Shown piece after piece: positions 8,919 to 42,860 of a stretch of 64,000 nucleotides of DNA. This DNA is from Deltaproteobacteria bacterium. Its GTDB lineage: Bacteria > Desulfobacterota > Syntrophia > Syntrophales > JACQWR01. The stretch spans positions 30,623-94,622 of the forward strand of contig JACQWR010000013.1 of assembly GCA_016209105.1 (NCBI GenBank). Reading direction: 5' to 3'. A program made the translations under genes and the position numbers. The notes under the pieces are model-generated. The model saw only the letters and a program-made list of their open reading frames with translations. It was not told the origin of the DNA and ran no database searches. Each line of letters opens with the position of its first letter. Position 1 is the first letter of the stretch.

Positions 8919-8995
8919 ATCCGAACGAGGCTTGAGGGACAGATTTGAAATTTGTCCCCAAGCACCGATGAAGGCTTTTTTGCAGGAGAATGAAC

Positions 8996-9406: not shown

Positions 9407-9435
9407 ATTTCTCAACATTTACCTGGAGGGGAAAA

Positions 9436-12286: not shown

Positions 12287-13134
12287 AAGAAGCAACCTAC
12301 TATCCCGGGTGCTCCCTCCACGGGACAGCCCGCGAATATGACGAATCATTCCGGGGGGTATCGAAACTGCTGGAGGTGAATCTTCACGAATTGGAGGATT
12401 GGACCTGCTGCGGCTCCACCTCCGCGCACTGCACCGACGAGGCATTGTCCGTTGCGCTCCCGGTTCGGAATTTAAATCTTGCCGGGAAATATGACCGGGA
12501 GATGATCGTGCCCTGCGTGGCATGTTACAGTCGCTTTAAAGCCGCCCAACAGGGTGCAAAGGAACACCCGGAATATCTCCCTACTCCTTATGAAGAAAAA
12601 GTTGCCGTCCACTACGCGCTTGACTTTTTTTGTGATTCCTCCATGATTGAAGCGCTGAAAACGAAAACGGCAAAGCCGCTTTCCGGCCTGAAGGTTGCCT
12701 GCTACTACGGCTGCCTTGCCGTCCGGCCTCCCGACCTGACCGGCGTGAAGCAGTATGAAAATCCTGATCATATGGATCGTCTGATGGAGATACTGGGCGC
12801 CGAAGCGGTGCCTTGGTCATACAAAACCGATTGCTGCGGTGCGAGTCTTGTCATGACACGGACCGACATTGTGATCACCCTTAGTCAAAAAATCCTCTCT
12901 ATGGCGCTGGAAGCGGGCGCTGATTGCATCGTAACGGGCTGTACCATGTGTCATGCCAATCTCGATACGCGACAGGCCAGCCTTTCCGATGCTTCAGGCA
13001 ACAAAAATAAAATTCCCGTCTTTTATTTTACTGAACTTATGGGTTTGGCAATGGGGCATCGGGAAGTGAAAAAGTGGCTCAGTCGCCACGTTACTGATCC
13101 GATTAAGCTCCTTTCAAGCAAAGGATTGCTGTAA
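12283..13134 (+). CDS. hdrB: Heterodisulfide reductase subunit B-like protein (two CCG domains)
   Basis: WTCCGSTSAH and KTDCCGASL CCG motifs. YYPGCSLHG N-terminus. GTG start coupled to hdrC. Confidence 0.85.
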   Translation: MKEATYYPGCSLHGTAREYDESFRGVSKLLEVNLHELEDWTCCGSTSAHCTDEALSVALPVRNLNLAGKYDREMIVPCVACYSRFKAAQQGAKEHPEYLPTPYEEKVAVHYALDFFCDSSMIEALKTKTAKPLSGLKVACYYGCLAVRPPDLTGVKQYENPDHMDRLMEILGAEAVPWSYKTDCCGASLVMTRTDIVITLSQKILSMALEAGADCIVTGCTMCHANLDTRQASLSDASGNKNKIPVFYFTELMGLAMGHREVKKWLSRHVTDPIKLLSSKGLL

Positions 13135-13448: not shown

Positions 13449-16400
13449 ATGGATGTGAAAGTCGGGGCAGTGATGGTTGTGGGCGGAGGGATAGCCGGCA
13501 TTCAGGCTTCCCTCGATCTGGCGGAATCCGGTTACTACGTTTATCTCATCGAATCTTCCCCTGCCATTGGCGGCCGCATGGCGCAGTTGGACAAGACGTT
13601 TCCGACGAACGATTGCGCCATGTGTATCGTATCTCCGAAGTTGGTAGAGGCGGGTCGTCATTTAAACATCGAGATTCTCACCAATTCCGAATTAATTTCC
13701 TTAGGAGGAGAGCCGGGCCGCTTTACGGCGCGCGTGCGTCGTGCACCCCGTTATGTGGATACGGCGAAATGTACGGGTTGCGCCGATTGCGTAGCGGTAT
13801 GCCCGGTCGGGTTATCGAACGAATTTAATGAGGGATTGGATGAGCGGAAGGCAATCTATCGTCCCTATCCACAGGCGGTTCCCAATTCATTTTTGGTGAC
13901 GAAGCGCGGGACGAGTCCCTGCAAGGCTGCGTGCCCTGCGGAGACGAGCGCCCAGGGGTACGTTGCGTTGATCCAGGCCGGTCACTACGAGGAGGCGCTG
14001 GAGGTAATACGGGAATACAATCCCTTTCCCGCTTCGGTGGGGAGGGTATGCACGCATCCCTGTGAGAGGGAATGCAGTCGCGGGAAGGTTGATGCGCCGG
14101 TATCAATATGCGCTTTGAAGCGGTTTACCGCGGACTGGGTGTACGAGCACGGCAGCTCATTGAACAAGGCGGCAGGTGTCGGCGACGGCATTTCGGGGAG
14201 GCCCGAGGCAAAGGTGGCGGTAGTTGGTTCCGGACCCGCCGGTTTGAGTTGCGCGCATCATCTGGTTCGAATGGGGTACGGGGCAGTGGTATTCGAGTCA
14301 TTGCCGGTTGCTGGCGGCATGATGCGGGTAGGGATACCGGCATACCGTTTACCGCGAGAGGTGTTGCAGCGGGAGATTGATGTCATCGTTTCCGAGGGCG
14401 TGGAGATACGCCTGAACAGCCCCGTTCGGGACATAAACGGGTTATTTGCTGAGGGATACAGCGCGGTATTTTTGGCAATAGGCGCGCATGAGCCGCAACG
14501 TTTGGGCATCGAGGGAGAGGATGCGATCGGGGTATATCACGGCGTTCCTTTTTTACAGTCGGTGAGCTTGGGCGGTAAGGGGGGGACATTGCCCACCGTG
14601 GGCGATCGGGTGGTGGTCGTCGGAGGCGGCAACACGGCGGTGGATGCGGCGCGCACCTCACTTCGTTTGGGAGCCCGCGAGGTGGTGATGCTCTATCGTC
14701 GTTCCCGGGAGGAGATGCCGGCGAGCGGCTGGGAGATAGAACAGGCCGAGCAGGAGGGCGTCAAACTGGAATTGCTGACAGCTCCCGTGGCGGTAGAGGT
14801 AAAGGAGGGCCGGGTCGTCGGGGTAACGTGTCAGCGCATGGAGTTGGGCGAGCCTGACGAGAGCGGGCGCAGGCGTCCCGTGCCGGTGGCTGGTTCGGAA
14901 TTTTCCATTGGAGCGGACACGATGATCGCAGCGGTCGCGCAGGCGCCTGAGATATCGTTTTTGGATTCATCCCACGGTTTGGAGGTAAGTTCCCGTGGCA
15001 CCTTTGTGGTTGATCAAAAGACGCTGGCCACGAAGCGTGCGGGTGTTTTTGCCGGGGGCGATGTCCATCGCGGCCCGGGGATACTGATCGAGGCAATCGC
15101 GGATGGCAGGCGAGGCGCCCTTTCCATTGATCGCTATTTGAGAGGGGTTGATCTCCTCACCGCTCGTGAGGAGGTTCCCCTGCCGGTAGTCGCACTTACG
15201 GACGATGAGATAGACCATATCATTGAGGCGGGGAAGGTGGATTTATCTTCGCGGGTGTCCGTGGCCACGGCGCCGATTTCGGAACGCGTGCAAGATTTCC
15301 GCGAGGTGGAACTCTCATTGACGGAGGAGGAAGCAAAGCGTGAAGCTGCGCGTTGTCTTGAATGCGGGATCTGTTCGGAGTGCCATTTGTGTGTTCGGGT
15401 TTGCAAGGCAGGTGCGATAGATCACCAGGAGGCGGCTCGTGAGGATGAACTTCTGGTGGGGTCGGTGATTTTGGCGCCGGGGTATTCCTTATATGATCCC
15501 GGGTTGTCGCCGGAGTTGGGGTACGGCCGCTACGCGAACGTGGTGACGAGCATGGAGTTCGAGCGGATCCTCTCCGCCTCCGGACCTTTTGCGGGTCATG
15601 TGACCCGACCTTCGGATCATCGGGAGCCGAAGAAGATCGCCTTTTTGCAGTGCGTCGGCTCCCGGAACAAGGACAATGACTACTGCAGCTCGGTGTGCTG
15701 CATGTACGCCACAAAGGAAGCGGTTATTCTGAAAGAGCACCTGCCCGCTGCGGAGCCCACCATCTTCTATATGGACATCCGCGCCCAGGGAAAAGATTTT
15801 GATCTTTATTACGAACGGGCAAAAAAGGATTACGGCGTCCGTTACGTCCATTCCCATATCTCCCGCATCGCGGAGAAACCGGCGAGCGGTAATCTTCTGA
15901 TCAGGTATATAGATGCCGAGAAGGGGATACAGGAAGAAGAGTTCGACATGGCGGTTCTTTCCGTGGGCATGAAACCGGCGCCGCAGGCGCGGGAGCTTGC
16001 CGGGAGGCTCGGCGTCTCCCTCGACGGGAACGGGTTCTGCCTCTCCGATGGCTTTTCACCGCTCAACACCTCGGTGCCGGGCGTCTTTGCCTGCGGGGTA
16101 TTTCAAGGTCCCAAGGATATTCCGGAAACGGTCGTTCAGGCAGGCGCTGCGGCCGAGGCCGCTTCTGCCTTCCTTGCCGAGGCGAGAGGAACCCTCACGA
16201 GAAAGAAAGAGTATCCACCGGAGCGCGATGTAACCGCCCAGGAGGCCCGTATCGGCGTCTTCGTATGCCATTGCGGGATCAACATTGGGGGCATTGTCAA
16301 CGTTCCGGAGGTGAAGGAGTATGCACGAACGCTTCCCAACGTGTTCCATGTTGACGAGAACCTCTACACCTGTTCTCAGGACACGCAGGAGAAGATCAAG

Positions 16401-17927
16401 AAGGCCGTAGATGAATACCATTTAAATCGCGTCGTGGTGGCTTCCTGTTCGCCCCGCACCCATGAACCGCTCTTTCGGGAAACCATCCGGGAGATTGGCC
16501 TGAATAAATATCTTTTCGAGATGGCGAACATCCGCGATCAGTGTTCCTGGGTGCACATGAAACTTCCCCTCGAGGCCACTCAGAAGGCAAAAGAGTTGCT
16601 CAGCATGACGGTGGCAAAAGCCCGCTTGATCAGGGCGCTGGACGAGCCGCTTATGGAAATTAACAAGAAAGCCCTCGTCATCGGCGGCGGCCTGGCGGGA
16701 ATGAAGGCGGCTCTCGGTCTGGCGGAACAGGGTTTTGCCTCCGTCCTGGTGGAGCGGGAGAAAGAGCTTGGGGGAAACCTACGCCATATTTATCATACCC
16801 TGGAAGGAAAGGACGTTCAGCAATTTCTCGAGAGTTCCGTCCGGGAAGTTTTATCCAATCCCCTGATAGAAGTTGTAACGGACGCAGAGATAAAGAGCAT
16901 CAACGGCTACCTGGGCAACTTCCACACGGCGATATCGGCGGGAGGCAGCGAACGGGAATATGAACATGGGGTCGTGATCGTTTCTGTAGGAGCGCAGGAA
17001 AGCCGCCCGTCCGAATATCTCTATGGAAAGGACAACCGCGTCGTCACGCAGAGCGAACTGGAAGAGCGGATTGCCCGCCGGCCTGAAGAAGTAAAGACCT
17101 ATCGAAATATTGTGATGATCCAGTGCGTCGGTTCCCGCATTCCCGAACGACCCAATTGCAGTCGCATCTGTTGTTCCGTGGCGGTGAAAAACGCCCTCGC
17201 GCTCAAGGAGATTTCCCCTGATGCGAATATAACCGTCATCTACCGGGATATGCGCACCTATGGGCTCATGGAGCAGTATTACACGCTGGCTCGAAAAAAA
17301 GGCGTCACCTTTATCCCCTACGACGTGGAGGCAAAGCCGGAACTGAGTGCCGCCGGGGGTGATCTGAATCTGAGCGTGCGGGACAGGATGGTGAACGAGG
17401 AACAGCTCATCACCCCCGATCTTGTCGTGCTCTCCAGTGCGGTTGTGCCCTATGAGAATGACACTTTGGCAAAGATGCTGAAGGTGCCTCTGACGGCAGA
17501 TAAATTCTTCCTCGAAGCGCATATGAAACTGCGGCCGGTGGATTTTGCCACCGATGGCGTATTTCTTGCCGGCATGGCGCACTTCCCCAAGACCATCAGC
17601 GAGACAATAGCGCAGGCAGGAGCGGCCGTGTCGCGGGCTACCGCTGCCATCGCCAAAGGCTTTGTAAGCGTCCTTCCCACGATCTCCTGCGTAGACCAGA
17701 GCCGTTGCGTCGGCTGCGGCCTTTGCGAATCCCTCTGTCCGTTCAATGCCATCCGGGTGGGCGAGACGGAAAAAGGGAAGAAGGCCGAGACGATTGCGGC
17801 ATCGTGCAAAGGCTGCGGCATCTGCGCTGCCAGTTGCCCCCAGAAGGCAGCCGCTATACATCATTTTACGGACGAAGAGTTATACGCTCAAATAGAGGCA
17901 TTGAAAGATATCGCGGTAATGCAGTGA
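13449..17927 (+). CDS. Giant HdrA-class flavoprotein with inserted NfnB/GltD-like NAD(P)H oxidoreductase module and a second HdrA-like half (HdrL-type), copy 1
   Basis: 1492 aa.
- HdrA start: VVGGGIAGIQASLDLA, FPTNDCAMCI, CTGCADCVAVCP.
- GltD/NfnB-like part: SPCKAACPAETSAQGY, VAVVGSGPAGLSCAHHL, VVVVGGGNTAVDAART, GVFAGGDV.
- Then CLECGICSECHLCVRVC.
- Second half: GVFVCHCGINIGG, ALVIGGGLAGMKAAL.
- C-terminal 2x4Fe-4S: CVGCGLCESLCP, CKGCGICAASCP. Confidence 0.85.
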   Translation: MDVKVGAVMVVGGGIAGIQASLDLAESGYYVYLIESSPAIGGRMAQLDKTFPTNDCAMCIVSPKLVEAGRHLNIEILTNSELISLGGEPGRFTARVRRAPRYVDTAKCTGCADCVAVCPVGLSNEFNEGLDERKAIYRPYPQAVPNSFLVTKRGTSPCKAACPAETSAQGYVALIQAGHYEEALEVIREYNPFPASVGRVCTHPCERECSRGKVDAPVSICALKRFTADWVYEHGSSLNKAAGVGDGISGRPEAKVAVVGSGPAGLSCAHHLVRMGYGAVVFESLPVAGGMMRVGIPAYRLPREVLQREIDVIVSEGVEIRLNSPVRDINGLFAEGYSAVFLAIGAHEPQRLGIEGEDAIGVYHGVPFLQSVSLGGKGGTLPTVGDRVVVVGGGNTAVDAARTSLRLGAREVVMLYRRSREEMPASGWEIEQAEQEGVKLELLTAPVAVEVKEGRVVGVTCQRMELGEPDESGRRRPVPVAGSEFSIGADTMIAAVAQAPEISFLDSSHGLEVSSRGTFVVDQKTLATKRAGVFAGGDVHRGPGILIEAIADGRRGALSIDRYLRGVDLLTAREEVPLPVVALTDDEIDHIIEAGKVDLSSRVSVATAPISERVQDFREVELSLTEEEAKREAARCLECGICSECHLCVRVCKAGAIDHQEAAREDELLVGSVILAPGYSLYDPGLSPELGYGRYANVVTSMEFERILSASGPFAGHVTRPSDHREPKKIAFLQCVGSRNKDNDYCSSVCCMYATKEAVILKEHLPAAEPTIFYMDIRAQGKDFDLYYERAKKDYGVRYVHSHISRIAEKPASGNLLIRYIDAEKGIQEEEFDMAVLSVGMKPAPQARELAGRLGVSLDGNGFCLSDGFSPLNTSVPGVFACGVFQGPKDIPETVVQAGAAAEAASAFLAEARGTLTRKKEYPPERDVTAQEARIGVFVCHCGINIGGIVNVPEVKEYARTLPNVFHVDENLYTCSQDTQEKIKKAVDEYHLNRVVVASCSPRTHEPLFRETIREIGLNKYLFEMANIRDQCSWVHMKLPLEATQKAKELLSMTVAKARLIRALDEPLMEINKKALVIGGGLAGMKAALGLAEQGFASVLVEREKELGGNLRHIYHTLEGKDVQQFLESSVREVLSNPLIEVVTDAEIKSINGYLGNFHTAISAGGSEREYEHGVVIVSVGAQESRPSEYLYGKDNRVVTQSELEERIARRPEEVKTYRNIVMIQCVGSRIPERPNCSRICCSVAVKNALALKEISPDANITVIYRDMRTYGLMEQYYTLARKKGVTFIPYDVEAKPELSAAGGDLNLSVRDRMVNEEQLITPDLVVLSSAVVPYENDTLAKMLKVPLTADKFFLEAHMKLRPVDFATDGVFLAGMAHFPKTISETIAQAGAAVSRATAAIAKGFVSVLPTISCVDQSRCVGCGLCESLCPFNAIRVGETEKGKKAETIAASCKGCGICAASCPQKAAAIHHFTDEELYAQIEALKDIAVMQ
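13480..15720 (+). repeat. Dispersed repeat, copy A (5' ~2.2 kb of HdrL-type gene 1), highly similar to 30780-33040
   Basis: Line-by-line comparison gives 55/60 identical nt for 13561-13620 vs 30871-30930 and again for 13621-13680 vs 30931-30990. An 82-nt stretch has one mismatch. Boundaries are approximate. Confidence 0.75.
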
Positions 17928-17968: not shown

Positions 17969-18724
17969 ATGAGTTTTGAGCCGAAGATATTGACGTTCCT
18001 GTGCAACTGGTGCGCATATGCCGGCGCCGATCTTGCCGGCATTTCCCGCTTCCAGTATCAGCCGAACACCCGCGTCATACGGGTGATGTGTTCCGGCCGG
18101 ATTGACCCGGTGTTTATCCCCCGCGCTTTTCTTGCCGGCTTTGACGGGGTCATGATTCTCGGCTGCCATCCCGGCGATTGCCACTACTTGAGCGGCAACA
18201 TCCAGGCGGAACGCAAGATAAACCTTCTCAAGAAACTCCTGACCGACGAAGGGGTAGGCAGCGAGAGGCTCCTTCTGGACTGGGTTTCTGCCGGTGAAGC
18301 GCAACGGTTCGCCCTGCTTGTCAACCAGTTTACGGAGCAGATACGGGCTTGCGGACCGCTGCCTCAGGCAAAAGATTTTGAAGAGCGGCTGCGGGCTGTC
18401 GCCGCATCGCTTGAAGGAGAAAAGATCCGCTGGATGGCGGGCAAGGGGCCCGAACTCCTGGAGAAGGAAAACGTGTACGGCGAGCGCGTTGATCCGGAAA
18501 AGATCAATGCGGTTATGGAAAGTACCGTCAGAGAGGAGTTGGCGAAGAACCGCATCCTTATTCTGCTCGAAACGACCCCCCTCACGGCTAAAGAAATCAG
18601 TATGAAACTTGAGCTTCCCCTGAAGCAAACACTCTCCTATACCGTTTCTCTGGTCGGCGAGGGCAGGATCGGGTTCGATCCCTCAGAGGAAACTCATTAT
18701 CCGCGCTATGTAAGGAGTGCGTAA
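17969..18724 (+). CDS. mvhD: MvhD/FlpD-like protein fused to a C-terminal winged-helix-like domain (Cys form)
   Basis: The N-terminal 130 aa carry the MvhD motifs LCNWCAYAGADLAG, VMCSGRIDP and GCHPGDCHY. The C-terminal ~110 aa include NRILILLETTPLTAKEISMKLELPLKQTLSYTVSLVGEGRI, which resembles an ArsR/TrmB-type wHTH. Confidence 0.82.
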   Translation: MSFEPKILTFLCNWCAYAGADLAGISRFQYQPNTRVIRVMCSGRIDPVFIPRAFLAGFDGVMILGCHPGDCHYLSGNIQAERKINLLKKLLTDEGVGSERLLLDWVSAGEAQRFALLVNQFTEQIRACGPLPQAKDFEERLRAVAASLEGEKIRWMAGKGPELLEKENVYGERVDPEKINAVMESTVREELAKNRILILLETTPLTAKEISMKLELPLKQTLSYTVSLVGEGRIGFDPSEETHYPRYVRSA

Positions 18725-18741: not shown

Positions 18742-21700
18742 ATGAATACTGTTCCGGACAAACCCGTTGGCGCCGTACTGGTGGTAGGCGGCGGCATCGG
18801 CGGCATGCAGGCCTCCCTCGATCTGGCGGAATCGGGCTTTTATGTGTATCTCGTAGACAGCGCGCCGACCATCGGCGGCGTCATGTCGCAACTCGACAAG
18901 ACCTTTCCCACGAACGACTGCGCCATGTGCATCATGTCGCCGAAGCTGGTGGGTACGGGCTCTCACCGGAATATCCGCCTGATCACGAACGCCTCCGTGA
19001 AGGAAATCGTCGGTCCCGCCGGCAATTTCGAGGCCCGGATCACCAGAAAAGCCCGGTATATCCGTCCCGACAAGTGCACCGGCTGCGGAGAATGCGCCAA
19101 ACACTGCCCCGTTATCGCCGGTGATGATTATAACGTGGGAATGAGCAGAAGGTCGGCGGTGTACCTGCGCTATCCCCAGGCCATCCCCAAGGTGTTTCTC
19201 ATCGACCGGGAGGCCTGTATCGGCTGCGGTCTCTGCGAGCGGGTTTGCCTCGCCAACGCCGTGGACTATGCCGATCAGGATACGGAAGAGACCCTGTCCG
19301 TCGGTTCCGTCATCTTGGCGCCCGGCTTCGAGGTATTTGATGCGAGGCGCCGCCCGGAGTTCGGCTATGGCGTCTATCCCAACGTCCTGACGAGTATCGA
19401 GTTTGAGCGGATCCTGAGCGCCACCGGCCCCCATCGGAGTCACCTGCTTCGTCCCTCCGACGGTTCCATCCCCGAAAGGATCGCCTTTATCCAGTGCGTC
19501 GGCTCCCGTGATACGAGCTGCGGCAATGACTACTGTTCTTCCATCTGCTGCATGTACGCGACCAAAGAGGCCATCATCGCCAAAGAGCATGTCCACTTCG
19601 TCAAGCCGACGATCTTCTATATGGATATCAGGGCCTACGGCAAGGGATTCGATGCCTATTATGAACGCGCCAAGGCCGACTATGGCGTCCGGTTCATCAA
19701 GTCCATGGTCTCGAAGGTCAGGGAAGATCCGCGGACCGATAATCTCCTGATTACCTATCTGAATGAGGAGGGGGAGAGGCTCGAAGAGGAATTCGAGCTG
19801 GTGGTTCTTTCCGTCGGCGTGGTTCCCTCGACGTCCGTTCGCGAGATGGCGAAGCGTCTGGACGTGGATGTGGACCGCTTCGGTTTCTGTGAGACGGATA
19901 CCTTCGCTCCCGTCGCCACGTCGAGAGAGGGAATCTACGTCTGCGGCGCCTTCGAGAGTCCCCGGGATATTCCGGAAACCGTTTCCCAGGCCAGCGGCGC
20001 GGTTGCCGCGGCCACGGGCATCATCGCCTCGGCGCGGGGAACCCTGGCGTTAAAAAAAGAATACCCGCCCGAGGATGAGGTCAAGCCGGAAGAGGAACCG
20101 CGGATCGGCGTCTTCGTCTGCCACTGCGGCATCAATATCGGGGGCGTGATCAATGTCCCGTCGGTCAAGGAGTACGCCGGGACGCTGCCCAACGTGGTCC
20201 ACGTGGATGAGAACCTCTACACCTGCTCGCAGGACACGCAGGAAAAGATAAAAAATGCCGTCAAGGAACGGGGCTTGAACCGGGTCATCGTCGCCTCCTG
20301 TTCCCCGCGAACCCATGAGCCCATGTTCCGGGAAACCATCCGGGATGCCGGGCTGAATAAGTTTCTCTTCGAGATGGCCAATATCCGCGACCAATGCTCC
20401 TGGGTGCACATGCGGCAGAAGGCGGAGGCAACGGAGAAGGCCAAGAAGCTTGTCCGGATGGCCGTGGGCAATGTGCGCTTGAACCAGGCATTGACGGAGA
20501 CATCCGTGCCGGTGGTCCAGCGGGGCCTGGTAATCGGCGGCGGCGTTGCGGGCATGACGGCCGCCCTCCAGCTTGCTGAACAGGGGTTTGAAGTGTTTCT
20601 GGTGGAAAAGGAAAGCCGGCTGGGAGGCAACCTCTGGAACCTCCATTATACTCTCGACGGCAAAGACATCGAGGCCTTCCTCCTCGATTTGATTGCGAAG
20701 GTCTCAAACAATCCGCTGATCCGGGTGCTGCTGAACAGCCTGATTGTGGATTTTACCGGTGTCCGGGGAAACTTCACCACCGGTGTCATGACGGCGCCTG
20801 CCATGTACTATCAGAAGATCGAGCACGGCATCACCGTCATGGCAACGGGCGCCGAAGAGGAGAAGCCGCATGAATACGGTTACGGCGAGGACGAGCGCGT
20901 CCTGACGCAGCTTGAACTGGAAGGCCGTATCGCGGGGGCGGATACGGGGATAAGTGGGATCAAAGAAGTGGTCATGATCCAGTGCGTGGGTTCCCGGAAT
21001 GAGCAGCACCCCTCCTGCAGCCGCACCTGCTGCGCCACGGCCATCAAGAACGCGCTCAAGCTCAAAGAACTGAACCCTGCGATCCGCATTCACATTCTCT
21101 ATCGTGATATCCGCACCTACGGCCTGATGGAGCCGTACTATGCCCGGGCGCGCAAGGAAGGCATCCTGTTTGTCCGCTATGAGCCGGCGGAAGGTCCTGA
21201 AGTAACGGTGAACGAAAACAAGCTCTCGGTATCCTATGACGATAAAATGTTAAAGGAACGGATCACCATTACCCCTGATCTTCTCGTTCTGTCATCGGCA
21301 ACCGTCCCGCGGGAAAACAAGGAACTTGCCAATCTCTTGAAGGTGCCCCGGACGGCAGAAGGCTTCTTCCTCGAGGCTCACATGAAGCTGCGCCCCGTGG
21401 ATTTCGCCAGTGACGGCATCTACCTTTGCGGGGGCGCCCATGCCCCGAAATTGATCAGTGAGACCATATCCCAGGCAGGCGCCGCAGTGGCGAGGGCCTG
21501 CACCATCCTTTCGAAGGAAAACCTCTCCGTTGGCGGGGTCGTGGCCGTGGTTACGGGTGAGCAATGCGCCGCCTGTCTTACCTGTGTGCGGGTATGCCCC
21601 TACGATGTGCCGGTTATCAATATCCGGGGAGAGGCGGAGATAGATATCATCAAGTGCAAAGGATGCGGCACCTGTGCGGCGGAATGCCCGGCCCGGGCGA

Positions 21701-21774
21701 TAGATTTGATGCATTTTCGCGGCAGTCAACTCGAGGCGAAGATCGGAGCCTTGATCAGCGCGCAGGTTAGTTAG
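18742..21774 (+). CDS. hdrA: Double-length HdrA-like heterodisulfide reductase subunit A flavoprotein (no NfnB-like insert)
   Basis: 1010 aa. LVVGGGIGGMQASLDLA, FPTNDCAMCI, CTGCGECAKHCP, CIGCGLCERVC, GVFVCHCGINIGG, LVIGGGVAGMTAAL, CAACLTCVRVCP, CKGCGTCAAECP. RBS GAGGA. Confidence 0.88.
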   Translation: MNTVPDKPVGAVLVVGGGIGGMQASLDLAESGFYVYLVDSAPTIGGVMSQLDKTFPTNDCAMCIMSPKLVGTGSHRNIRLITNASVKEIVGPAGNFEARITRKARYIRPDKCTGCGECAKHCPVIAGDDYNVGMSRRSAVYLRYPQAIPKVFLIDREACIGCGLCERVCLANAVDYADQDTEETLSVGSVILAPGFEVFDARRRPEFGYGVYPNVLTSIEFERILSATGPHRSHLLRPSDGSIPERIAFIQCVGSRDTSCGNDYCSSICCMYATKEAIIAKEHVHFVKPTIFYMDIRAYGKGFDAYYERAKADYGVRFIKSMVSKVREDPRTDNLLITYLNEEGERLEEEFELVVLSVGVVPSTSVREMAKRLDVDVDRFGFCETDTFAPVATSREGIYVCGAFESPRDIPETVSQASGAVAAATGIIASARGTLALKKEYPPEDEVKPEEEPRIGVFVCHCGINIGGVINVPSVKEYAGTLPNVVHVDENLYTCSQDTQEKIKNAVKERGLNRVIVASCSPRTHEPMFRETIRDAGLNKFLFEMANIRDQCSWVHMRQKAEATEKAKKLVRMAVGNVRLNQALTETSVPVVQRGLVIGGGVAGMTAALQLAEQGFEVFLVEKESRLGGNLWNLHYTLDGKDIEAFLLDLIAKVSNNPLIRVLLNSLIVDFTGVRGNFTTGVMTAPAMYYQKIEHGITVMATGAEEEKPHEYGYGEDERVLTQLELEGRIAGADTGISGIKEVVMIQCVGSRNEQHPSCSRTCCATAIKNALKLKELNPAIRIHILYRDIRTYGLMEPYYARARKEGILFVRYEPAEGPEVTVNENKLSVSYDDKMLKERITITPDLLVLSSATVPRENKELANLLKVPRTAEGFFLEAHMKLRPVDFASDGIYLCGGAHAPKLISETISQAGAAVARACTILSKENLSVGGVVAVVTGEQCAACLTCVRVCPYDVPVINIRGEAEIDIIKCKGCGTCAAECPARAIDLMHFRGSQLEAKIGALISAQVS

Positions 21775-21820
21775 CAGGAAACCAATATAGTCTTTTATTA
21801 CATTTGGCATTGGTATTACT

Positions 21821-23548
21821 ATGAAATTACAAGCAATTTCTGTTTCGCAATATAGAAGCATCTCTTCTGCTAAACGAATTCGTCTAGAACGTTCAACTAT
21901 TTTAATTGGACCGAATAATGAAGGTAAATCAAACATTCTTCGTGGATTAGTTCTTGCGATGACAGTTTTGACTAGAGGTCGTCACCGCATGATGTTGAGG
22001 GACCGATTTCGGGCAACTTATAATGCACTTGGATACAATTGGGAGAAGGATTATCCTATTAATCTTCAAAAAAAGAACCCGAACGGGGAGACAGAAATAG
22101 TCCTAGAATTTGCGCTTGAGAATGAAGAATATGAAGAATTTTATAGGGAGGTCAAGAGTAGAATAACTGGGAGTTTGCCGATTCGAATAGGAATTGGCAA
22201 GAATGATGTATCAATTAAATTCAATAAAAAAGGCAAAGGCTCTGCAGCATTATCTAAGAAGTCTGCTGTAATTGCTGATTTCGTTTCCAGTAGAATTGAG
22301 TTTGAGCATATACCGGCTGTGCGAACCGCCCAATCTGCACAAAATATTGTATCAGATCTCGTTAGTCGTGAATTATATGGATTAGAAAATAATCCTGATT
22401 ATAAATTAGCGTTACAAAAAATTGAGGAACTTCAAACGCCGATTTTAAAAACGCTTTCAGATAGTATATTTAATACACTCAAACAATTTTTACCTCAGGT
22501 TAAAAAGGTAAAAATAGAATTACCACAATCAGAGAGGATTCAGGCATTTCGTAGAGGCACCGAAATTTCGGTTGATGATGGAACGATGACACCTTTGCAG
22601 TACAAAGGTGATGGAGTGCAAAGTTTAGCGGCCTTAGGAATAATTCGCCATGCATCTGATAAATCCGCAAAAGGCAAGAAGTTTGTTATTGCTATAGAGG
22701 AGCCAGAATCTCATCTACATCCCAATGCGATCCATGAACTAAAGGAAGTCATCGATGGGCTCAGTGAGAAACATCAAATTATTATTACATCACATAACCC
22801 ACTATTTGTGGATAGGCGGATTATATCCAACAATATAATTGTTAATGATCGCAAAGCAAAGCCAGCCAAGAATGTTGAAGAAATAAGAAAGATATTAGGT
22901 GTTCGTGCATCTGACAATCTTAGAAATGCCGAGATGGTCTTGGTGGTCGAGGGCGAAGATGACATTATTAGCCTAAAAGCTATTATTCAAGAATATTCTG
23001 GATATTTGAAGGACGCTATTAAAAATGGATCACTTGCTTTCGATTCATTGAATGGCGGCACAAACCTGTCATATAAAATATCCTTACTCCGCGATGCAAT
23101 TTGTCTGTACCATGTATTCATAGACGATGATCGCTGCGGAAGGGAATCCTATAAGAAAGCTAAAGATAGTGGCTTGCTTGAAGATGGCCAGATTAATTTT
23201 GCAAAAGCTCACGGTAGGAACGAAAGCGAAATCGAAGATTTGTTTAATCCAGATGTGTATAAGGCAGCAATCGAAAATAAATATCGTATTAAACTTTCAA
23301 TTCCCAAATTTCGGGGGAATAAGAAGTGGTCCGAAAGAGTGAAAGATGTTTTTGGTGCGCATGGTAAACCTTGGGATGATTCCATTGAGAAAGATTTAAA
23401 GTATATAGTTGCCAAGCTAGTTTCATCAAATCCACAGGACGTGATAAATAACCATGACAAAATGATCATTGATTCACTTATAATGGCATTGGAAGGCAGA
23501 TTAAAGGAAAGGGCAGAGGCCCAACGAGCCGCTTCAGTGGATGACTGA
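21821..23548 (+). CDS. OLD-family nuclease (N-terminal ABC-like ATPase + C-terminal TOPRIM), orphan / class-1-like
   Basis: 575 aa. Walker A GPNNEGKSN, signature-like YKGDGVQSL, Walker B FVIAIEEPESHLHP, SHNPLF. TOPRIM MVLVVEGEDDIISLK and VFIDDDRCG. AT-rich: sampled 60-nt lines give 28-37% G+C. No adjacent helicase gene. Confidence 0.8.
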   Translation: MKLQAISVSQYRSISSAKRIRLERSTILIGPNNEGKSNILRGLVLAMTVLTRGRHRMMLRDRFRATYNALGYNWEKDYPINLQKKNPNGETEIVLEFALENEEYEEFYREVKSRITGSLPIRIGIGKNDVSIKFNKKGKGSAALSKKSAVIADFVSSRIEFEHIPAVRTAQSAQNIVSDLVSRELYGLENNPDYKLALQKIEELQTPILKTLSDSIFNTLKQFLPQVKKVKIELPQSERIQAFRRGTEISVDDGTMTPLQYKGDGVQSLAALGIIRHASDKSAKGKKFVIAIEEPESHLHPNAIHELKEVIDGLSEKHQIIITSHNPLFVDRRIISNNIIVNDRKAKPAKNVEEIRKILGVRASDNLRNAEMVLVVEGEDDIISLKAIIQEYSGYLKDAIKNGSLAFDSLNGGTNLSYKISLLRDAICLYHVFIDDDRCGRESYKKAKDSGLLEDGQINFAKAHGRNESEIEDLFNPDVYKAAIENKYRIKLSIPKFRGNKKWSERVKDVFGAHGKPWDDSIEKDLKYIVAKLVSSNPQDVINNHDKMIIDSLIMALEGRLKERAEAQRAASVDD

Positions 23549-23694
23549 CGTTGCCCTTAAGCTTATTGTTCACTGCTTTTTATCGGTAATCTGCGTTTCT
23601 AATTGTACCTTGGCAGTCAACAGTGCTAGGTGAACGAGAGAAAAGTACGCAAGAACCGGATGAAACGGGTATAATCACAGGGAGGATAGCAAAT

Positions 23695-24132
23695 ATGGCG
23701 GACAGTGCAGGGAACGGATTTGAGCCTGAGGTTATTGCAATCTGCTGTGAGCATTGAGCTTACAGCGCTGCGGACCTGGCAGGTTCGATGAGACTGAGTT
23801 ATCCCAGTAATGTGAAGGTGGTGAAAGTACCCTGCACCGGCCGTGTGGATATTTTGTTGATCTTGCACGCCTTTGAAAATGGGGTGGACGGCGTTTACCT
23901 GGCCGGATGCCTGGAGGGCGAGTGCCATTTTTTGAAGGGAAACCTGCGGGCAAAAAAGCGGGTGCAGTATGTGAAAGGTTTGCTGGAAGAGGTCGGCATA
24001 GGCGGTGAACGGGTGGAGATGTTTAACATGAGCGCATCCCAGGGTCAGCGGTTTGCACAGTGTGCGCAGGAAATGACGGAACGCGTGCGTTCGTTGGGAC
24101 CGTCGCCGGTAAAGGGAGGTTCAAAAAAATGA
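23695..24132 (+). CDS. mvhD: MvhD/FlpD-like protein, predicted selenoprotein (in-frame UGA at 23755-23757)
   Basis: RBS GGAGGA (23681-23686) lies 8 nt before ATG 23695. Read-through gives MADSAGNGFEPEVIAICCEH-U-AYSAADLAGSMRLSYPSNVKVVKVPCTGRVD. This aligns with paralog 1, FEPKILTFLCNWCAYAGADLAG...VMCSGRID, with U opposite the second Cys. The track ORF 23788..24132 is the in-frame continuation and would lack the Cys motif. Confidence 0.75.
23755..23757 (+). other. Putative selenocysteine (UGA) recoding site in mvhD copy 2
   Basis: The TGA is in frame between ATG 23695 and ATG 23788. It aligns with Cys of CNWCAY in the paralog at 17969. I could not confidently fold a SECIS hairpin by eye. Confidence 0.65.
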
Positions 24133-24797
24133 TCGTAGGTAATCGCAAGGAATTTCAGGAGATCGTGGGGATGCTGGGCTCCAACAGGCGGGTGCTTCTG
24201 TTGGGGTGCAATGAGTGCGTGACGGTTTGCGGCGTGGGCGGCGAGAAGGAAGTAGGGGTGCTCGCATCGGAATTGCGCATTCACTGGAAGACAGCCGGGG
24301 AGACCTTCGAGGTCAAAGAGCATACGCTGGAGCGGCAGTGTGATTACGAGTACATAGATCAGGTGCGCGGTTTTGTCGGCGATTATGACGTCATTTTATC
24401 GATGGCCTGCGGGGCTGGGGTTCAATATGTCGCGGAGGCCTATAAGACAAAACTGGTGATGCCGGCGGTGAATACGACCTTTCTGGGAGTCACCCTGGAG
24501 CAGGGGGTATGGAGTGAGCGCTGCCAGGGCTGCGGCGCCTGCATCCTCGATATGACGGGGGGAGTCTGTCCCATCGCACGCTGCGCGAAGAGTCTCATGA
24601 ACGGCCCCTGCGGCGGTTCGTCGGGAGGGAAGTGCGAGGTGGACAAGGAGGTGGATTGCGGCTGGCAGTTGATAATTGACCGTCTCACGGAGCTTGGACA
24701 GTTGGATCGTTACGAAGATATCATACCGGTAAAGGATTGGCGCAGCAGCCGCGAAGCAGGTCCGCGCAAGAGAATAAGGGAGGATTTGAGACTGTGA
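24129..24797 (+). CDS. metV: MetV small subunit of MetVF-type methylene-THF reductase, copy 2
   Basis: LGCNECVTVCGVGG, MACGAGVQ, CQGCGACIL and CPIARCAKSLMNGPCGG. ATG 24129 overlaps the mvhD stop (ATGA), so the ORF 24060 extension was rejected. Confidence 0.82.
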   Translation: MIVGNRKEFQEIVGMLGSNRRVLLLGCNECVTVCGVGGEKEVGVLASELRIHWKTAGETFEVKEHTLERQCDYEYIDQVRGFVGDYDVILSMACGAGVQYVAEAYKTKLVMPAVNTTFLGVTLEQGVWSERCQGCGACILDMTGGVCPIARCAKSLMNGPCGGSSGGKCEVDKEVDCGWQLIIDRLTELGQLDRYEDIIPVKDWRSSREAGPRKRIREDLRL

Positions 24798-25717
24798 AGA
24801 CGAATTCAAAAATAGAGAAGATATGGGACTCCGGTGGGTTCATCGTCACGTCGGAATGCGGCCCCCCGCGTGGGGCGGACGCTGAGATTGTTCGTAAAAA
24901 GGGAGAGTATTTACGGGGTGTGGTAGATGGCGTGAACGTCACGGACAATCAGACCTCGGTGGTGCGCATGTCTTCCCTTTCCGCCTGTGCGATATTGAAG
25001 GGTATGGGCCTGGAGCCCATTTTACAGATGGTCTGCCGCGACCGGAACCGGATCGCCTTGCAGAGCGACATTTTGGGCGCCGCCGCCCTGGGGATAAACA
25101 ACATGCTCTGTTTATCCGGCGATCATCAAAAGTTCGGCGATCATCCCCAGGGCAAGAATGTCTATGATATTGATTCCATGCAGTTGATACAGACGGTCCG
25201 TCAGATGCGTGATGAGGGAAAATTTCTGGGCGGCGACGAGATAAAGGGAAAGCCGGTGATCTTTATCGGCGCGGCGGAAAATCCCTTTGCCGATCCCTTC
25301 GAGATACGGGCGGCCAGGCTGGGAAAAAAGGTAAAGTCGGGTTGCCAGTTTATTCAGACGCAATGCATCTATAATTTAGAGAAGTTCAGCCGCTGGATGC
25401 AGATGGTCTGCGACCGCGGCTTGCATGAGAAGTGCGCCATTCTGGCCGGGGTAACGCCGATGAAATCGGCGGGCATGGCGAATTATATGAAAAAAAATGT
25501 TCCCGGAATGGATGTCCCTGACGCCCTGATTGAACGAATGAAAGGGACGCCCAAAGAGAAGCAGGCGGAAGAGGGGATCAATATCTGTGTAGAGTCCATA
25601 CAGCAGTTGAGGGAAATGCCGGGTGTGCGGGGCATTCACATCATGGCGATAGAATGGGAAGAGAAGGTAGCGGAAATCGTCAAAGCTGCCGGATTATTTC
25701 CGAGACCGGAAGTGTAA
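24794..25717 (+). CDS. metF: Methylenetetrahydrofolate reductase MetF, copy 2
   Basis: TSECGPP, NVTDNQTSVVRM, CRDRNR, LCLSGDH and FIQTQCIYN. GTG 24794 overlaps the metV stop (GTGA) and follows GGGAGGA. 307 aa, like copy 1. Confidence 0.87.
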   Translation: MKTNSKIEKIWDSGGFIVTSECGPPRGADAEIVRKKGEYLRGVVDGVNVTDNQTSVVRMSSLSACAILKGMGLEPILQMVCRDRNRIALQSDILGAAALGINNMLCLSGDHQKFGDHPQGKNVYDIDSMQLIQTVRQMRDEGKFLGGDEIKGKPVIFIGAAENPFADPFEIRAARLGKKVKSGCQFIQTQCIYNLEKFSRWMQMVCDRGLHEKCAILAGVTPMKSAGMANYMKKNVPGMDVPDALIERMKGTPKEKQAEEGINICVESIQQLREMPGVRGIHIMAIEWEEKVAEIVKAAGLFPRPEV

Positions 25718-25795
25718 CAACAAAATGCCGCAGTGAGAATGCAGAATACAGAATAGAAAGTGTTTCTTACGTCCTTTTGTGAAAAGGAGCTGCCG

Positions 25796-27232
25796 ATGAA
25801 TTTAGCAATAAGTTCCGATCTGGCCAGTCAGATCCGCAGGCAGTGCGGTGAAAACGTCTTCTTGTGTTATCAGTGCCAGAAGTGCTCCTCCGGGTGTCCT
25901 GTCGCCGAATATTTCGACCTTGCCCCCAACCAGCTTATGCGTGCCCTTCAACTGGGACAGAAAGACATGGTTCTGAAGTCAAGGACCTTATGGCTTTGCG
26001 CCATGTGCGAGACCTGCGCCGTTCGGTGTCCTCATGACATAAATATCACCAGGATCATGGATGTCCTCAAGATCATGGCCCAGCAGGAAGGACTCTCTTC
26101 GCCCCTTCCCTCCGCGGTGCTGTTGAATCAAGCTGCCATGAGAGGCATCCGCCTCTTCGGGCGGATGTATGAAGCAGGCCTCATGGGTGAAATCTATTTC
26201 CGTCAGATGCTCTCAGGCACGCTCGACTTCCGCCGGCTCCTTCGAATAGATCTTCCCTTGGCGTCAAAAATGATCCGGAAAAGGAAACTGAAGCTCCTTC
26301 CGTCCTTCGGGAAGACCGCCTTATCGAAGAAAAACACGAAACAAGGAGAAGGGATCGCCTATTACCCCGGCTGCAGCCTCCACGGCACATCGAGTGAATA
26401 CGATCTTTCCACCCGCGCGGTACTTTCCCGGCTGGGCGTTACGCTTCAGGAACCACAGAGCTGGAACTGCTGCGGAAGCACCCCCGCCCACTCAACGGAT
26501 CACTATCTTTCCGTACTGCTTCCCCTGAGGACCCTGCAGACCATTGATAAGGCGGGATTCGACACCCTAACCACACCGTGTCCTTCCTGTTTTATTCGCC
26601 TGAGAACAGCGCAGAGAGAATGTCGGGATGAAGGGATCAAACAGCGGCTTCAAGCCGAAGTAGGAGAACTCCCCTCAGCGGATTTGAAGATTGAACATCT
26701 CCTGCAGACCGTCTCGGAAAGGATCGGATACGAGAAGGTAAGGGAAGCTGTCGTTCGTCCCCTCAGGGGATTAAAGGTAGTCTGCTACTATGGCTGCATC
26801 ATCACCAGGCCTCCGAAAATTACCGGGGTTCAGGATTATGAATATCCTACCGCCATGGAACGGATAATGAAAACAGTGGGCGCTACTCCTCTTGACTGGT
26901 CGTACAAAACCCGCTGTTGCGGTGCAACCCTCAGTATTTCAAAACCGGCAATCGCTCTTAACCTTACCGGGAAAATCCTCCAAAACGCAAAAAACGTGGG
27001 CGCCGACGCCATTGTTGTAGCCTGTCCGCTGTGCCAAATAAACCTCGATGTCCGTCAGCAACAGATCAGCGAAGAGGGGGGAAAGCCGTTTTCTATCCCT
27101 ATTATGTATTTTACCCAGTTGATGGGACTGGCTTTCGACATGAGTGCTTCAGAACTGGGACTTGGAAAACATTTTGTCGATGCCGGGACCATAGTCGCTC
27201 AAAGCGCACCTGCTCAATTCTCATGCCCTTAA
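25796..27232 (+). CDS. Fused HdrC-HdrB-like protein
   Basis: The N-terminal part has CYQCQKCSSGCPV and CAMCETCAVRCPHDIN. The C-terminal part has YYPGCSLHG, WNCCGSTPAH and KTRCCGATL. ATG 25796 follows AAAGGAG. Confidence 0.85.
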   Translation: MNLAISSDLASQIRRQCGENVFLCYQCQKCSSGCPVAEYFDLAPNQLMRALQLGQKDMVLKSRTLWLCAMCETCAVRCPHDINITRIMDVLKIMAQQEGLSSPLPSAVLLNQAAMRGIRLFGRMYEAGLMGEIYFRQMLSGTLDFRRLLRIDLPLASKMIRKRKLKLLPSFGKTALSKKNTKQGEGIAYYPGCSLHGTSSEYDLSTRAVLSRLGVTLQEPQSWNCCGSTPAHSTDHYLSVLLPLRTLQTIDKAGFDTLTTPCPSCFIRLRTAQRECRDEGIKQRLQAEVGELPSADLKIEHLLQTVSERIGYEKVREAVVRPLRGLKVVCYYGCIITRPPKITGVQDYEYPTAMERIMKTVGATPLDWSYKTRCCGATLSISKPAIALNLTGKILQNAKNVGADAIVVACPLCQINLDVRQQQISEEGGKPFSIPIMYFTQLMGLAFDMSASELGLGKHFVDAGTIVAQSAPAQFSCP

Positions 27233-29842: not shown

Positions 29843-30724
29843 ATGCGGTTAGCAGAAAATCTGAAAAAGAAAAAGTTTGTCGTTACCTCGGAACTTCAGC
29901 CTCCTATCGGCATGGGAGCGGGTGAGTTCGTCCAAAATGTGGAGCGGGCACGGGGAAGGGTGGATGCCTTTACCGTGCCCGAACTGAAAATTGAAGGGCT
30001 GGTTGCCGATACGATGGGGACCTGCAAGATACTGAGGGAGCATCAATTCGATCCGATCCTGCAAACCGCCTGCCGCGACAGGAACAGGGTGGAACTCCAA
30101 GAGTACCTTCTCAAGGCATCGGAGGCGGGCATAGAAAATATCCTTACCTTTACGGAGGACTACCGTATCACCGGTGACAGCCTGCAGGAAATTATGTTCT
30201 TTCATGTGGATTCGGGCAAGCTTTTTTCCGTTGTGGAGAATATGAGCCGGGGACAGGATATTTCCGGGAAGGAATTGCCCGCCAAGGCCACTTTCTGCAT
30301 TGGTTCCGGCATTGATTCCCGATGGGGCAGACAAGTGCCGGATATGCAACTCAAGGAAATGGAATCGCTGGCGGGTTTTGGCGCCCAGTATTTCCTCTCC
30401 ACGCCGGTGTTTGATCTCGATTCCTTCAATCAATTCATGAAACGCCTGGCGCCTCTCCGGGTTCCGGTCATCGCCGAAATCATACTCGTGAGAACCGCCG
30501 AGATGGGGATCTTTCTTAACAAACACATGAGGAGTGGGATCGTCCCCCCGCATATCATTGAGAAATTAGCCAAGGCTCCGGACAAGGAAAAAGCGAGCAT
30601 CGAAATCGTCAGCGATCTGGTGAAAGGGCTGAAGGATCTCTGTCAGGGGGTGCACCTCATCCCCTTCGGCGCGGAGGACCGGATTGCAAAGTACCTTGAG
30701 GCTGCAAAACTTTCATCCCTGTAA
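29843..30724 (+). CDS. Divergent MetF/MTHFR-family protein (copy 3, motifs altered)
   Basis: Retains TSELQPP and CRDRNR. NITDNQ is replaced by TVPELK, LCLSGDH by LTFTEDY, and FIQTQCIYD by YFLSTPVFD. RBS GAGGAG. Lies immediately upstream of HdrL-type gene 2. Confidence 0.7.
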   Translation: MRLAENLKKKKFVVTSELQPPIGMGAGEFVQNVERARGRVDAFTVPELKIEGLVADTMGTCKILREHQFDPILQTACRDRNRVELQEYLLKASEAGIENILTFTEDYRITGDSLQEIMFFHVDSGKLFSVVENMSRGQDISGKELPAKATFCIGSGIDSRWGRQVPDMQLKEMESLAGFGAQYFLSTPVFDLDSFNQFMKRLAPLRVPVIAEIILVRTAEMGIFLNKHMRSGIVPPHIIEKLAKAPDKEKASIEIVSDLVKGLKDLCQGVHLIPFGAEDRIAKYLEAAKLSSL

Positions 30725-30747: not shown

Positions 30748-33700
30748 ATGAATTTGCGGGAAAACCAAAAAATAGGAGCCGCCCTGGTTATCGGTGGGGG
30801 GATAGCGGGCGTTCAGGCGTCTCTGGACCTGGCCAATTCGGGCATCAAGGTTTATCTTCTCGAATCTTCGCCTGCCATTGGCGGTCGGATGGCTCAGTTG
30901 GACAAGACGTTTCCTACGAACGATTGCGCCATGTGCATTGTATCGCCGAAGTTGGTAGAGGCGGGTCGTCATCTGAACATCGAGATTCTCACCAATTCCA
31001 AGTTAGTATCATTATCGGGCATTCCGGGTTCATTTCGGGCGCGTATTCGTCATTCGCCGCGGTACATTGATGTGGGGAAGTGCACGGGTTGTGCCGATTG
31101 CGCGGAGGTTTGTCCGGTTGTGTTGTCGAACGAGTTCAATGAGGGGTTGGACGAGCGGAGGGCCATTTATCGTCCTTACCCCCAGGCGGTTCCGAATTCA
31201 TTTTTAGTAACGAAGCGGGGGACAAGTCCCTGCAAGGCGGCCTGTCCTGCGGAGACGAGCGCACAGGGGTATGTTGCCTTGATTGGCGCCGGTCGGTATG
31301 AGGAGGCATTGGAGGTAATTCGGGAGTACAATCCCTTTCCTGCCTCGGTGGGGAGGGTATGCACGCATCCGTGTGAGGAGGAGTGCAGTCGGGGGAAGGT
31401 TGATTCTCCCGTGGGGATTTGCGCCTTGAAGAGATTTGTTGCGGACTGGGTATATGAGCACGGCGGTTCATCGGAGAAGGCGATAGGGATTGGTGACGGG
31501 ATTACGGGGAGGCCCGAGGCGAAGGTAGCGGTGGTCGGTTCCGGTCCTGCTGGCATGAGTTGTGCTCATCATCTGGTTCGGATGGGATATGGGGTTACGG
31601 TTTATGAGTCATTGCCGGTAGCGGGGGGGATGATGCGGGTGGGGATACCTGCGTACCGGTTGCCGCGGGAGGTATTGCAGCGGGAGATAGACGCCATTGT
31701 AGCCGAGGGTGTGGAGTTGAGGTTAAACACTCCGGTTCGGGACATAAACGGGTTATTTGAGGAAGGCTACCGCGCGGTATTTCTGGCGATGGGCGCTCAT
31801 GAGCCTCAGCGCCTGGGGATTGAGGGCGAGGATGCCAGGGGGGTATATCATGGCGTTCCTTTTTTGCAGTCGGTGAGCTTGGGTGACGGCGGCGGGGAGT
31901 TGCCCCGGACGGGTGAGCGGGTAGTAGTGATTGGCGGCGGCAACACGGCGATTGACTCGGCGCGCACGGCACTTCGTCTGGGGGCGAGGGAGGTGATGCT
32001 GGTTTATCGTCGTTCGCGGGAGGAGATGCCGGCGAACGACTGGGAGGTAGAAGAGGCGGAGCGTGAGGGCGTCAAGCTTGAGTTGTTGACGGCGCCGGTG
32101 TCGGTGGAGACGCGGGAGGGCAGGATTGTCGGCGTTCGGTGTTTGCGTATGGAGTTGGGGGAGGCGGACGCGAGCGGGCGGAGGCGTCCGGTTCCGGTTC
32201 CCGGTTCTGAGTTTGTGATTGCGGCGGACACGATGATTGCGGCGGTTGCTCAGGCGCCGGAGATATCTTTTTTGGATGAGTCGCACGGTTTGGAGATAAG
32301 TTCGCGGGGGACATTTGTCGTTGATCAAAAGACTCTGGCCACGAAGCGTGCGGGGATATTTGCCGGGGGCGATGTTCACCGGGGCCCGGGGATATTGATT
32401 GAGGCCATAGCGGACGGTCGGCGGGGCGCGCTTTCGATAGACCGGTATTTACGGGGGGTTGATCTCCTCACCGCTCGTGAGGAGGTTCCCCTGCCGGTAG
32501 TCGCGCTTACGGACGATGAGATAGACCATATCATTGCGGCGGGGAAGGTGGATTTATCGCCGCGGGTGACGGCACCGACCTCGCCAGTTTCGGAGCGTAT
32601 TCGTGATTTTCGCGAGGTTGAGCTGTCGTTGACGGAGGCCGAGGCAAGGCGAGAGGCTGCTCGTTGTCTCGAATGCGGGATCTGTTCGGAGTGTCATTTA
32701 TGCGTGCGGGTGTGCAAGGCGGGTGCGATAGATCACCAGGATGCGGCGCGGGAGGAAGAGCTTTCGGTGGGATCGGTGATAGCGGCGCCGGGGTACTCGT
32801 TATATGACCCGGGGTTGTCTCCGGAGCTGGGATATGGTCGTTATGCCAATGTGGTCACGAGCATGGAGTTTGAGCGGATGCTTTCCGCCTCCGGCCCGTT
32901 CGGGGGACACGTGACCCGTCCCTCGGATCACCGGGAGCCGAAGAAGATCGCTTTTCTCCAGTGCGTCGGCTCCCGCGACAAGGACCATGATTACTGTAGC
33001 TCCGTATGCTGCATGTACGCCACAAAGGAAGCTGTGCTTGCCATGGAGCACATACCGGGTGTGGAGTGCATAATATTTCAGATGGACATGCGTGCCTTCA
33101 GCAAGGGGTTTGACGCCTATTACGAGAGAGGGAAGGAAAAAGGCGTACGCTATATTCCCTGCAGGATTTCCGCTCTGGAGGAGGACCCCCGGACAAAGGA
33201 AATTCTTATTCGCTACCGCAATGGAAGCGAAGATCCCTCCATTCGTGAGGAACGGGTTGATATGGCGATACTGAGTATCGGCATGTCGCCGCCTTCCCGG
33301 ATCGGGGAATTTGCGGAGATCGCAGGCATTGAACTCAACGCCCACCGGTTTTGCTCGACCCGTGACTTTTATCCCCTCGAAACAAGCCGTCCCGGTGTTT
33401 ATGTGTGCGGTACTTTTGCTGAACCAAAGGACATCCCGGACACCGTCATCCAGGCAAGCGGCGCGGCGGCAAAAGCCCTTGCCCTGCTGGGGGAATCCCG
33501 CGGAACCCTGATTCGCAAAAAAGACTATCCTCCCGAGCAGGAATGTCCTGCCGGTGAAGAGCCGCGGATCGGCGTATTTGTTTGCAGTTGCGGTTCAAAT
33601 ATTGCGGGAACGGTAGCGGTAAAAGATGTGGTGAACTATGTGGGCGCTCTTCCCGGCGTCGTCCATGTGGAAAACACAACCTATACCTGTTCGGCCGATT

Positions 33701-42836: not shown

Positions 42837-42860
42837 TGCACGCAACCCTTATCGAGGCCA

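Follow-up and report, generated by a model that had tools for sequence, protein, structure and literature searches.

Within the 64,000-nucleotide stretch of DNA analysed here (the window), the second of two mvhD genes carries a TGA triplet in frame after only 20 codons. Does this triplet end the protein, as the automated gene call implies, or is it read as selenocysteine (Sec)? A first-pass annotation, made from the letters alone, had proposed Sec. Judged on sequence comparisons, UGA 23755-23757 is very probably a genuine Sec codon with its own bacterial SECIS element (bSECIS). This reading is supported by a Sec/Cys pair among the orthologues, by an RNA-level constraint that is specific to the TGA forms and falls on a bSECIS-like hairpin, and by the known occurrence of CxxU in the family.

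The frame that opens at ATG 23695 reads MADSAGNGFEPEVIAICCEH, then the TGA, then AYSAADLAGSMRLSYPSNVKVVKVPCTGRVD and onwards to a stop at TGA 24130-24132 (Table 1). UGA would thus be used twice in the same gene, as Sec at 23755 and as a stop at 24130. The predicted motif is C18-E-H-U21, and the other conserved cysteines are residues 17, 47, 72 and 77. When the 145-residue read-through protein, with Cys standing in for residue 21, was searched against Pfam, it matched the FlpD/MvhD family PF02662 over the whole profile (positions 1-123 of 123, residues 13-135, E 1.7e-48; 164 bits against a cut-off of 22.3). As the match begins at residue 13, the FlpD domain starts eight codons upstream of the UGA. 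Six MvhD/VhuD sequences from the PDB also matched, with E values from 5e-34 to 5e-41.

The mechanical ORF list begins mvhD at ATG 23788 and gives a protein of 114 aa, which is without the first 19 positions of the FlpD profile and without the CCxxU block, and the sole RBS-like signal upstream of that ATG is a weak AGG. The first-pass annotation had placed the ribosome-binding site, the ATG and the in-frame TGA where we find them; it had also described the 114-aa call as a fragment, with a start that lacks a proper ribosome-binding site and would remove the conserved Cys motif, and each of these statements agrees with the sequence. At the other end of the gene, the mvhD stop overlaps the metV start in an ATGA at 24129-24132, which suggests translational coupling.

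Table 1 Features of the window around the Sec-form mvhD gene, with coordinates in the window.
Feature	Position	Strand	Basis or remark
CODH	31-2010		Wood-Ljungdahl region
acsB	2090-4297		Wood-Ljungdahl region
CdhD-type corrinoid protein subunit	4368-5714		
Methyltransferase	5817-6719		
metF	6791-7720		
metV	9322-10110		
hdrC, hdrB	11723-13134		
hdrL-type fusion, 1492 aa	13449-17927	+	
Long Cys-type mvhD, 251 aa	17969-18724	+	
hdrA, presumed partner of Sec-MvhD	18742-21774	+	Translation, Pfam on the identical gene of locus L082, synteny
Low-GC ATPase gene	21821-23548	+	
Shine-Dalgarno GGAGGA	23681-23686	+	8 nt upstream of ATG 23695; read from the sequence
Sec-form mvhD CDS (predicted)	23695-24132	+	145 residues, Sec = residue 21; translation, Pfam, PDB matches, orthologue alignment
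In-frame UGA, codon 21, read as Sec (predicted)	23755-23757	+	TGA in 42/42 Sec-form sequences
Candidate bacterial SECIS	block 23770-23787, hairpin 23771-23787	+	18-nt block GCGGACCUGGCAGGUUCG
Internal Met32 codon, wrong start of the ORF callers	23788-23790	+	Abuts the 3' end of the hairpin
metV, C-terminal-type methylene-THF reductase subunit	24129-24797	+	Pfam DUF5981/MTHFR_C, E 2.8e-37; L082 gene call
metF, methylene-THF reductase	24794-25717	+	Pfam MTHFR, E 6e-40; start from the L082 gene call
Fused hdrC-hdrB, Fer4 and two CCG domains	25796-27232	+	Pfam CCG, Fer4_17; L082 call of 478 aa

A scan with one genome per species returned 80 loci, and the aligned codon was located in each of them. 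A TGA stands at codon 21 in 42 distinct sequences (the window and 41 related loci), with the frame conserved on both sides, and TGC or TGT in the 23 more distant, Cys-form orthologues that were scored in detail. According to their record titles, the TGA forms belong to Syntrophobacterales, Syntrophaceae/Syntrophales, Syntrophorhabdaceae, Acidobacteriota, Desulfarculus/Desulfarculaceae (Desulfarculales) and some Desulfobacterales, and the scored Cys forms to Desulfocapsaceae, Desulfobacterales/Desulfobacteraceae, Dehalococcoidia and other Chloroflexota, Actinomycetota and Bacillota. The TGA forms share the consensus FEPEIxAFCCEx*AYSAADLAG around the UGA codon (asterisk). In the twelve codons 5' of the TGA the amino acids are kept and the synonymous sites vary freely; the region is therefore coding, which settles an earlier concern that the upstream codons might be noncoding. 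Kept amino acids with free synonymous variation mark the flanks on either side of the TGA as coding.

In the orthologue alignment (A1), C47, C72 and C77 are invariant, and C18 and U21 fall on the CxxC of the full-length homologues. The same correspondence had been noticed within the window: the paralogue at 17969 reads FEPKILTFLCNWCAYAGADLAG, and the UGA indeed stands opposite the second Cys of its CxxC. The closest relatives in the protein collection (86-100% identity) are fragments of 114-122 aa beginning MRLSYP, with one exception (P0001). Members of the next tier of homologues (62-83% identity, P0001 included) are full length and carry CCEYCAY or CCHYCAY.

The first-pass annotation had called for a SECIS search downstream of the UGA and had folded no convincing element by eye; a hairpin is present there nonetheless. 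Beginning 13 nt past the UGA, it has a 7-bp stem (C-G, G-C, G-U, A-U, C-G, C-G, U-A) and an apical GGC loop at 23778-23780, 20 nt from the UGA; its folding energy is -6.9 kcal/mol over 17 nt, or -8.2 kcal/mol over 19 nt. The bSECIS model, as quoted in PMC13188914, has a loop of 3-9 nt with a G in its first two positions (usually N1-G-[G/U]-N-N2), an upper stem of 4-16 bp, a UGA-to-loop spacing of 16-37 nt and a minimum free energy of at most -7.5 kcal/mol. Our hairpin agrees with all four published criteria (GGC or UGGCA loop, 7 bp, 20 nt and -8.2 kcal/mol for the 19-nt form, the 17-nt core alone slightly missing the energy threshold), and its loop, written as U-G-G-C-A, fits the usual pattern.

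Constraint on the hairpin was measured as per-codon synonymous-codon entropy, normalised by amino-acid degeneracy. Codons +5 to +10 (GCG GAC CTG GCA GGT TCG) have a mean entropy of 0.05 in the 42 TGA forms, where the median six-codon window of the gene scores 0.84 and the lowest non-overlapping window 0.66. In the 23 Cys forms, where they specify identical amino acids, these six codons score 0.79, and third positions elsewhere in the TGA-form gene are saturated (median pairwise identity 0.44). This synonymous freeze at +5 to +10, present in the TGA forms only, points to a constraint at the RNA level that is tied to the TGA.

Across the 42 TGA forms the stem is nearly invariant and shows almost no covariation, so the proposed structure rests on the fit to the model and on the synonymous freeze, not on compensatory changes. 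The sole compensatory change is found in L045 (TGA at 4562), in which the basal pair is G-C for C-G and Gly replaces Ala at +5. Five other loci (L015, L040, L050, L052 and L053) have a TCC Ser codon at +10, which puts a C-C mismatch at the base and shortens the stem to 6 bp. Taken as a whole, the 76 nt that follow the UGA show no folding advantage over shuffled sequences (z = -0.33), a test that says little because the signal sits in a short hairpin. Rfam gave no match in the whole window at gathering thresholds, and the Plastid-ycf2 hit from a permissive scan of 23680-23860 (18.8 vs 65.7 bits) was sub-threshold and was taken as chance.

The closest full-length Cys orthologue is found in a JGI metagenome (3300063152; L081, 158-592; 82-83% identity) and has TGT at the Sec column. 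Its SECIS block is intact apart from a single synonymous GAC-to-GAT substitution, by which a C-G pair becomes U-G. From its sequence, this block appears to be a relic SECIS left by a recent conversion from Sec to Cys.

Three other accounts of the TGA were weighed against Sec. The codon might be read through with a near-cognate Trp or Cys, or under a reassigned code, the downstream block then acting as a stimulator or in another RNA or DNA role. Such an account could appeal to the stem, which is invariant and does not covary, to the fact that Sec insertion is predicted from sequence, and to the Sec machinery: ARAGORN detected no tRNA-Sec in the 64-kb window or the 42 related loci, and selA, selB and selD were not found in the window (Pfam scans, 42 ORFs) or in the fetched related loci. 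We nevertheless hold it to be very unlikely. TGA terminates 15 of the 41 Pfam-supported genes in the window, mvhD included, and as an ordinary stop it speaks against any reassignment of the code; codon 21 aligns with Cys, never with Trp or Gly, in all the Cys forms; the hairpin fits constraints that are specific to bSECIS elements, among them the GG at the loop start and the spacing; and Sec occupies the corresponding position in an archaeal VhuD of solved structure and reportedly also in BamF.

We rate lower still the probability that a nonsense mutation has killed mvhD, or that its product is simply the 114-residue protein from ATG 23788, even though the ORF callers do give that 114-aa ORF and the Sec machinery was not seen in the window. 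A dead or shortened gene is hard to reconcile with a TGA kept in 42 distinct sequences that span several orders and two or more phyla, downstream of twelve codons under purifying selection, and a nonsense mutation would leave the freeze of the synonymous sites behind it unexplained. The truncated product would lose 19 domain positions together with the conserved CCxxC/U block, and its ATG lies immediately 3' of the hairpin with nothing better than the weak AGG before it. Least probable of all, to the point of being negligible, is an error of sequencing or assembly; this is an a priori possibility for any metagenome-derived sequence and nothing more, while an identical stretch of 151 nt including the TGA occurs in five independent SRA assemblies and 41 further loci in public genome assemblies share the TGA.

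A mechanical scan of the window for other TGA-bridged frames brought up no further credible selenoprotein: the TPR pair at 42066-43793 consists of two adjacent genes, and the remaining bridged frames are antisense to, or overlap, known genes. As to the wider setting, Syntrophobacter fumaroxidans has 39 selenoprotein genes (PMC9312934), and by analogy such selenoprotein-rich deltaproteobacterial anaerobes of similar kind provide context, not proof, for Sec at this locus.

Taking the UGA as Sec, we infer that the codon would be recoded during translation when the hairpin at 23771-23787, through its GGC loop, recruits the SelB-GTP-Sec-tRNA(Sec) complex; a ribosome without this recruitment would stop after 20 residues. 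The full product would carry C-x-x-U, with Sec in place of a conserved fifth Cys that lies near the [2Fe-2S] cluster and is probably not one of its ligands. In PDB sequence searches, residue 21 falls opposite the non-standard residue X of Methanococcus maripaludis VhuD (9SFI chain K, 9sfi_K), so that the comparison with a known Sec-containing homologue proposed at the outset comes out in favour of Sec, and opposite Cys16 of the 141-residue M. marburgensis MvhD chain (9SW2, 9sw2_D). Cys16 of MvhD, with Cys202 and Cys205 of HdrA, has been named among the "conserved additional cysteine residues" (PMC13580544), and the equivalent residue of BamF is Sec19 (BCRII preprint).

The family has five conserved Cys positions, numbered here 18, 21, 47, 72 and 77, and the [2Fe-2S] ligands were assigned from these two sources through alignment numbering, not from coordinates. 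On this assignment U21 is likeliest the fifth, non-ligand and redox-active position beside the cluster. The UGA had initially been placed opposite a cluster-ligand Cys, which is probably not correct, as it aligns with the "additional" Cys16 near the [2Fe-2S] cluster. Sec-MvhD would then act as a small [2Fe-2S] adaptor subunit supplying HdrA with electrons and, more speculatively, its selenol might help move electrons from the cluster to the HdrA cysteine pair and the FAD.

Pfam matches and gene order place hdrA, hdrB, hdrC, mvhD, metV and metF together at 18742-27232, in the same window as the CODH/ACS genes at 31-6719. The order hdrL, long mvhD, hdrA, Sec-mvhD, metV, metF is kept in three related loci (L001, L003 and L005), where hdrA directly adjoins Sec-mvhD. 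Related loci also share the order hdrA-mvhD-metV-metF-hdrCB. Because of this synteny, we infer that Sec-MvhD would be the [2Fe-2S] adaptor of a complex of the HdrABC-MvhD-MetVF type. The region 3' of the fused hdrCB contains a two-component system, a third metF-like gene and a second hdrL.

In the window, a gene for a 575-aa OLD-family ATPase/nuclease-like protein (21821-23548) lies between hdrA and Sec-mvhD. PADLOC ranks 'Old' first (E 4.7e-34), ahead of AriA and GajA, and its Pfam matches are AAA_15 and AAA_21. The GC content of this region is 0.35-0.39, compared with about 0.55-0.60 in the flanks, and the gap between hdrA and Sec-mvhD is about 60-150 nt in L001, L003 and L005, which together identify this as a foreign insertion of ~1.9 kb in the operon (about 21775-23694). 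All five SRA assemblies of the source population contain it.

Several of the neighbouring genes occur more than once. The HdrA/glutamate-synthase-type (HdrL) fusions at 13449-17927 and 30748-35253, both on the + strand, are 1492 and 1501 aa long and 68% identical; the first is followed by mvhD and the second by a response regulator. There are three MetF-like genes (6791-7720, 24794-25717 and 29843-30724) and two metV genes (9322-10110 and 24129-24797). Between the upstream metF and metV, at 7798-9406 (+), are three genes that form an unusual set for a Wood-Ljungdahl cluster: a membrane protein with a weak nitrate-reductase-gamma-like match, a small 4Fe-4S protein and a class III (c3-type) cytochrome. 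Since the longest metV ORF and the cytochrome ORF overlap, the start of this metV (9322-10110) is probably further downstream.

The Cys-type paralogue at 17969-18724 is 40% identical to Sec-MvhD and 106 residues longer. It consists of an FlpD domain and a C-terminal extension of ~120 residues with a weak winged-helix-like match (PF0610-like_N, E 8e-4), and its pairing with a Sec-type mvhD is also kept in related loci. We considered whether the two genes could be Cys and Sec isoforms of one protein and rejected this, given the 40% identity, the unequal lengths and the conservation of the pairing in relatives; by sequence, the Cys gene is a distant, longer paralogue from a different subfamily. 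The first-pass annotation had found the coexistence of both forms in one cluster notable. Both are indeed present, although they do not make an isoform pair and mixed paralogues were already reported in 2009.

For annotation, the gene should be entered as a 145-residue selenoprotein and not as a 114-residue fragment, and the same error affects essentially all the close homologues searched, every close database entry but one being a fragment of 114-122 aa. We regard it as possible, though doubtful, that the metVF-linked MvhD clade is a widespread and systematically mis-annotated selenoprotein subfamily. The 18-nt SECIS block is identical across Desulfobacterota-type lineages and Acidobacteriota, which would suggest either lateral spread of the module or a very narrow recognition code of SelB. 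By implication, the Wood-Ljungdahl methylene-THF reductase complex of this organism would depend on selenium.

[quoted passage not shown] Current understanding is left unchanged, as family, motif and recoding mechanism were all known already. The points of modest interest are the SECIS that does not vary across phyla, the clade truncated throughout the databases, the linkage to MetVF and the Sec on the Cys proposed as the relay of HdrA-type bifurcation.

Among known systems, PF02662 (MvhD/VhuD) with CxxU is listed as an established prokaryotic selenoprotein family (PMC13188914), as the first reading of this DNA had maintained. A close parallel is VhuD, the delta subunit of the F420-non-reducing hydrogenase of M. 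maripaludis and M. jannaschii, which shares PF02662 (E 5e-41, residues 10-140), has Sec in the same CxxU column and plays the same [2Fe-2S] adaptor role, docking on HdrA, as is proposed here. VhuD differs in carrying another Sec in the column that holds Cys72 of Sec-MvhD, and the archaeal SECIS is located in the 3' UTR, whereas the candidate element described here lies within the coding sequence just past the UGA. VhuD works for a hydrogenase or a formate dehydrogenase, while in our locus metV and metF adjoin and mvhA and mvhG are absent. Nor is the Cys paralogue of this cluster a selenium-free backup, unlike the arrangement of Vhc and Vhu.

The Moorella HdrABC-MvhD-MetVF complex (2014, as cited in PMC5736913 and PMC6085437) has the same neighbourhood of hdrA, mvhD, metV, metF and hdrB/C beside Wood-Ljungdahl genes. 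Homologues labelled Clostridia or Moorellaceae are 63-68% identical to Sec-MvhD but have Cys (CCxYCAY) where Sec is predicted here, and in our window hdrC and hdrB are fused and lie 3' of metF.

Desulfobacterium autotrophicum HRM2 was described in 2009 with four Sec mvhD genes (mvhD1, 2, 3 and 5) alongside Cys paralogues (PMC2702500), and the Sec-mvhD of Desulfococcus multivorans is split into two locus tags, dmul_C28840/50, which flank the UGA (PMC5109826). In both organisms, which we liken to ours by description only, mvhD genes with an in-frame UGA lie by hdrA or hdrL and occur with Cys paralogues. BamF of the class II benzoyl-CoA reductase of Geobacter metallireducens, also compared by description, is an adaptor of the MvhD type in which the position of the Cys beside the [2Fe-2S] cluster is Sec19, with a proposed selenenylsulfide role (BCRII preprint). 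It is more than 100 residues longer than Sec-MvhD and has a winged-helix domain in addition to two others, so that its architecture recalls not the Sec gene but the Cys paralogue at 17969-18724, with Cys in that paralogue in place of Sec.
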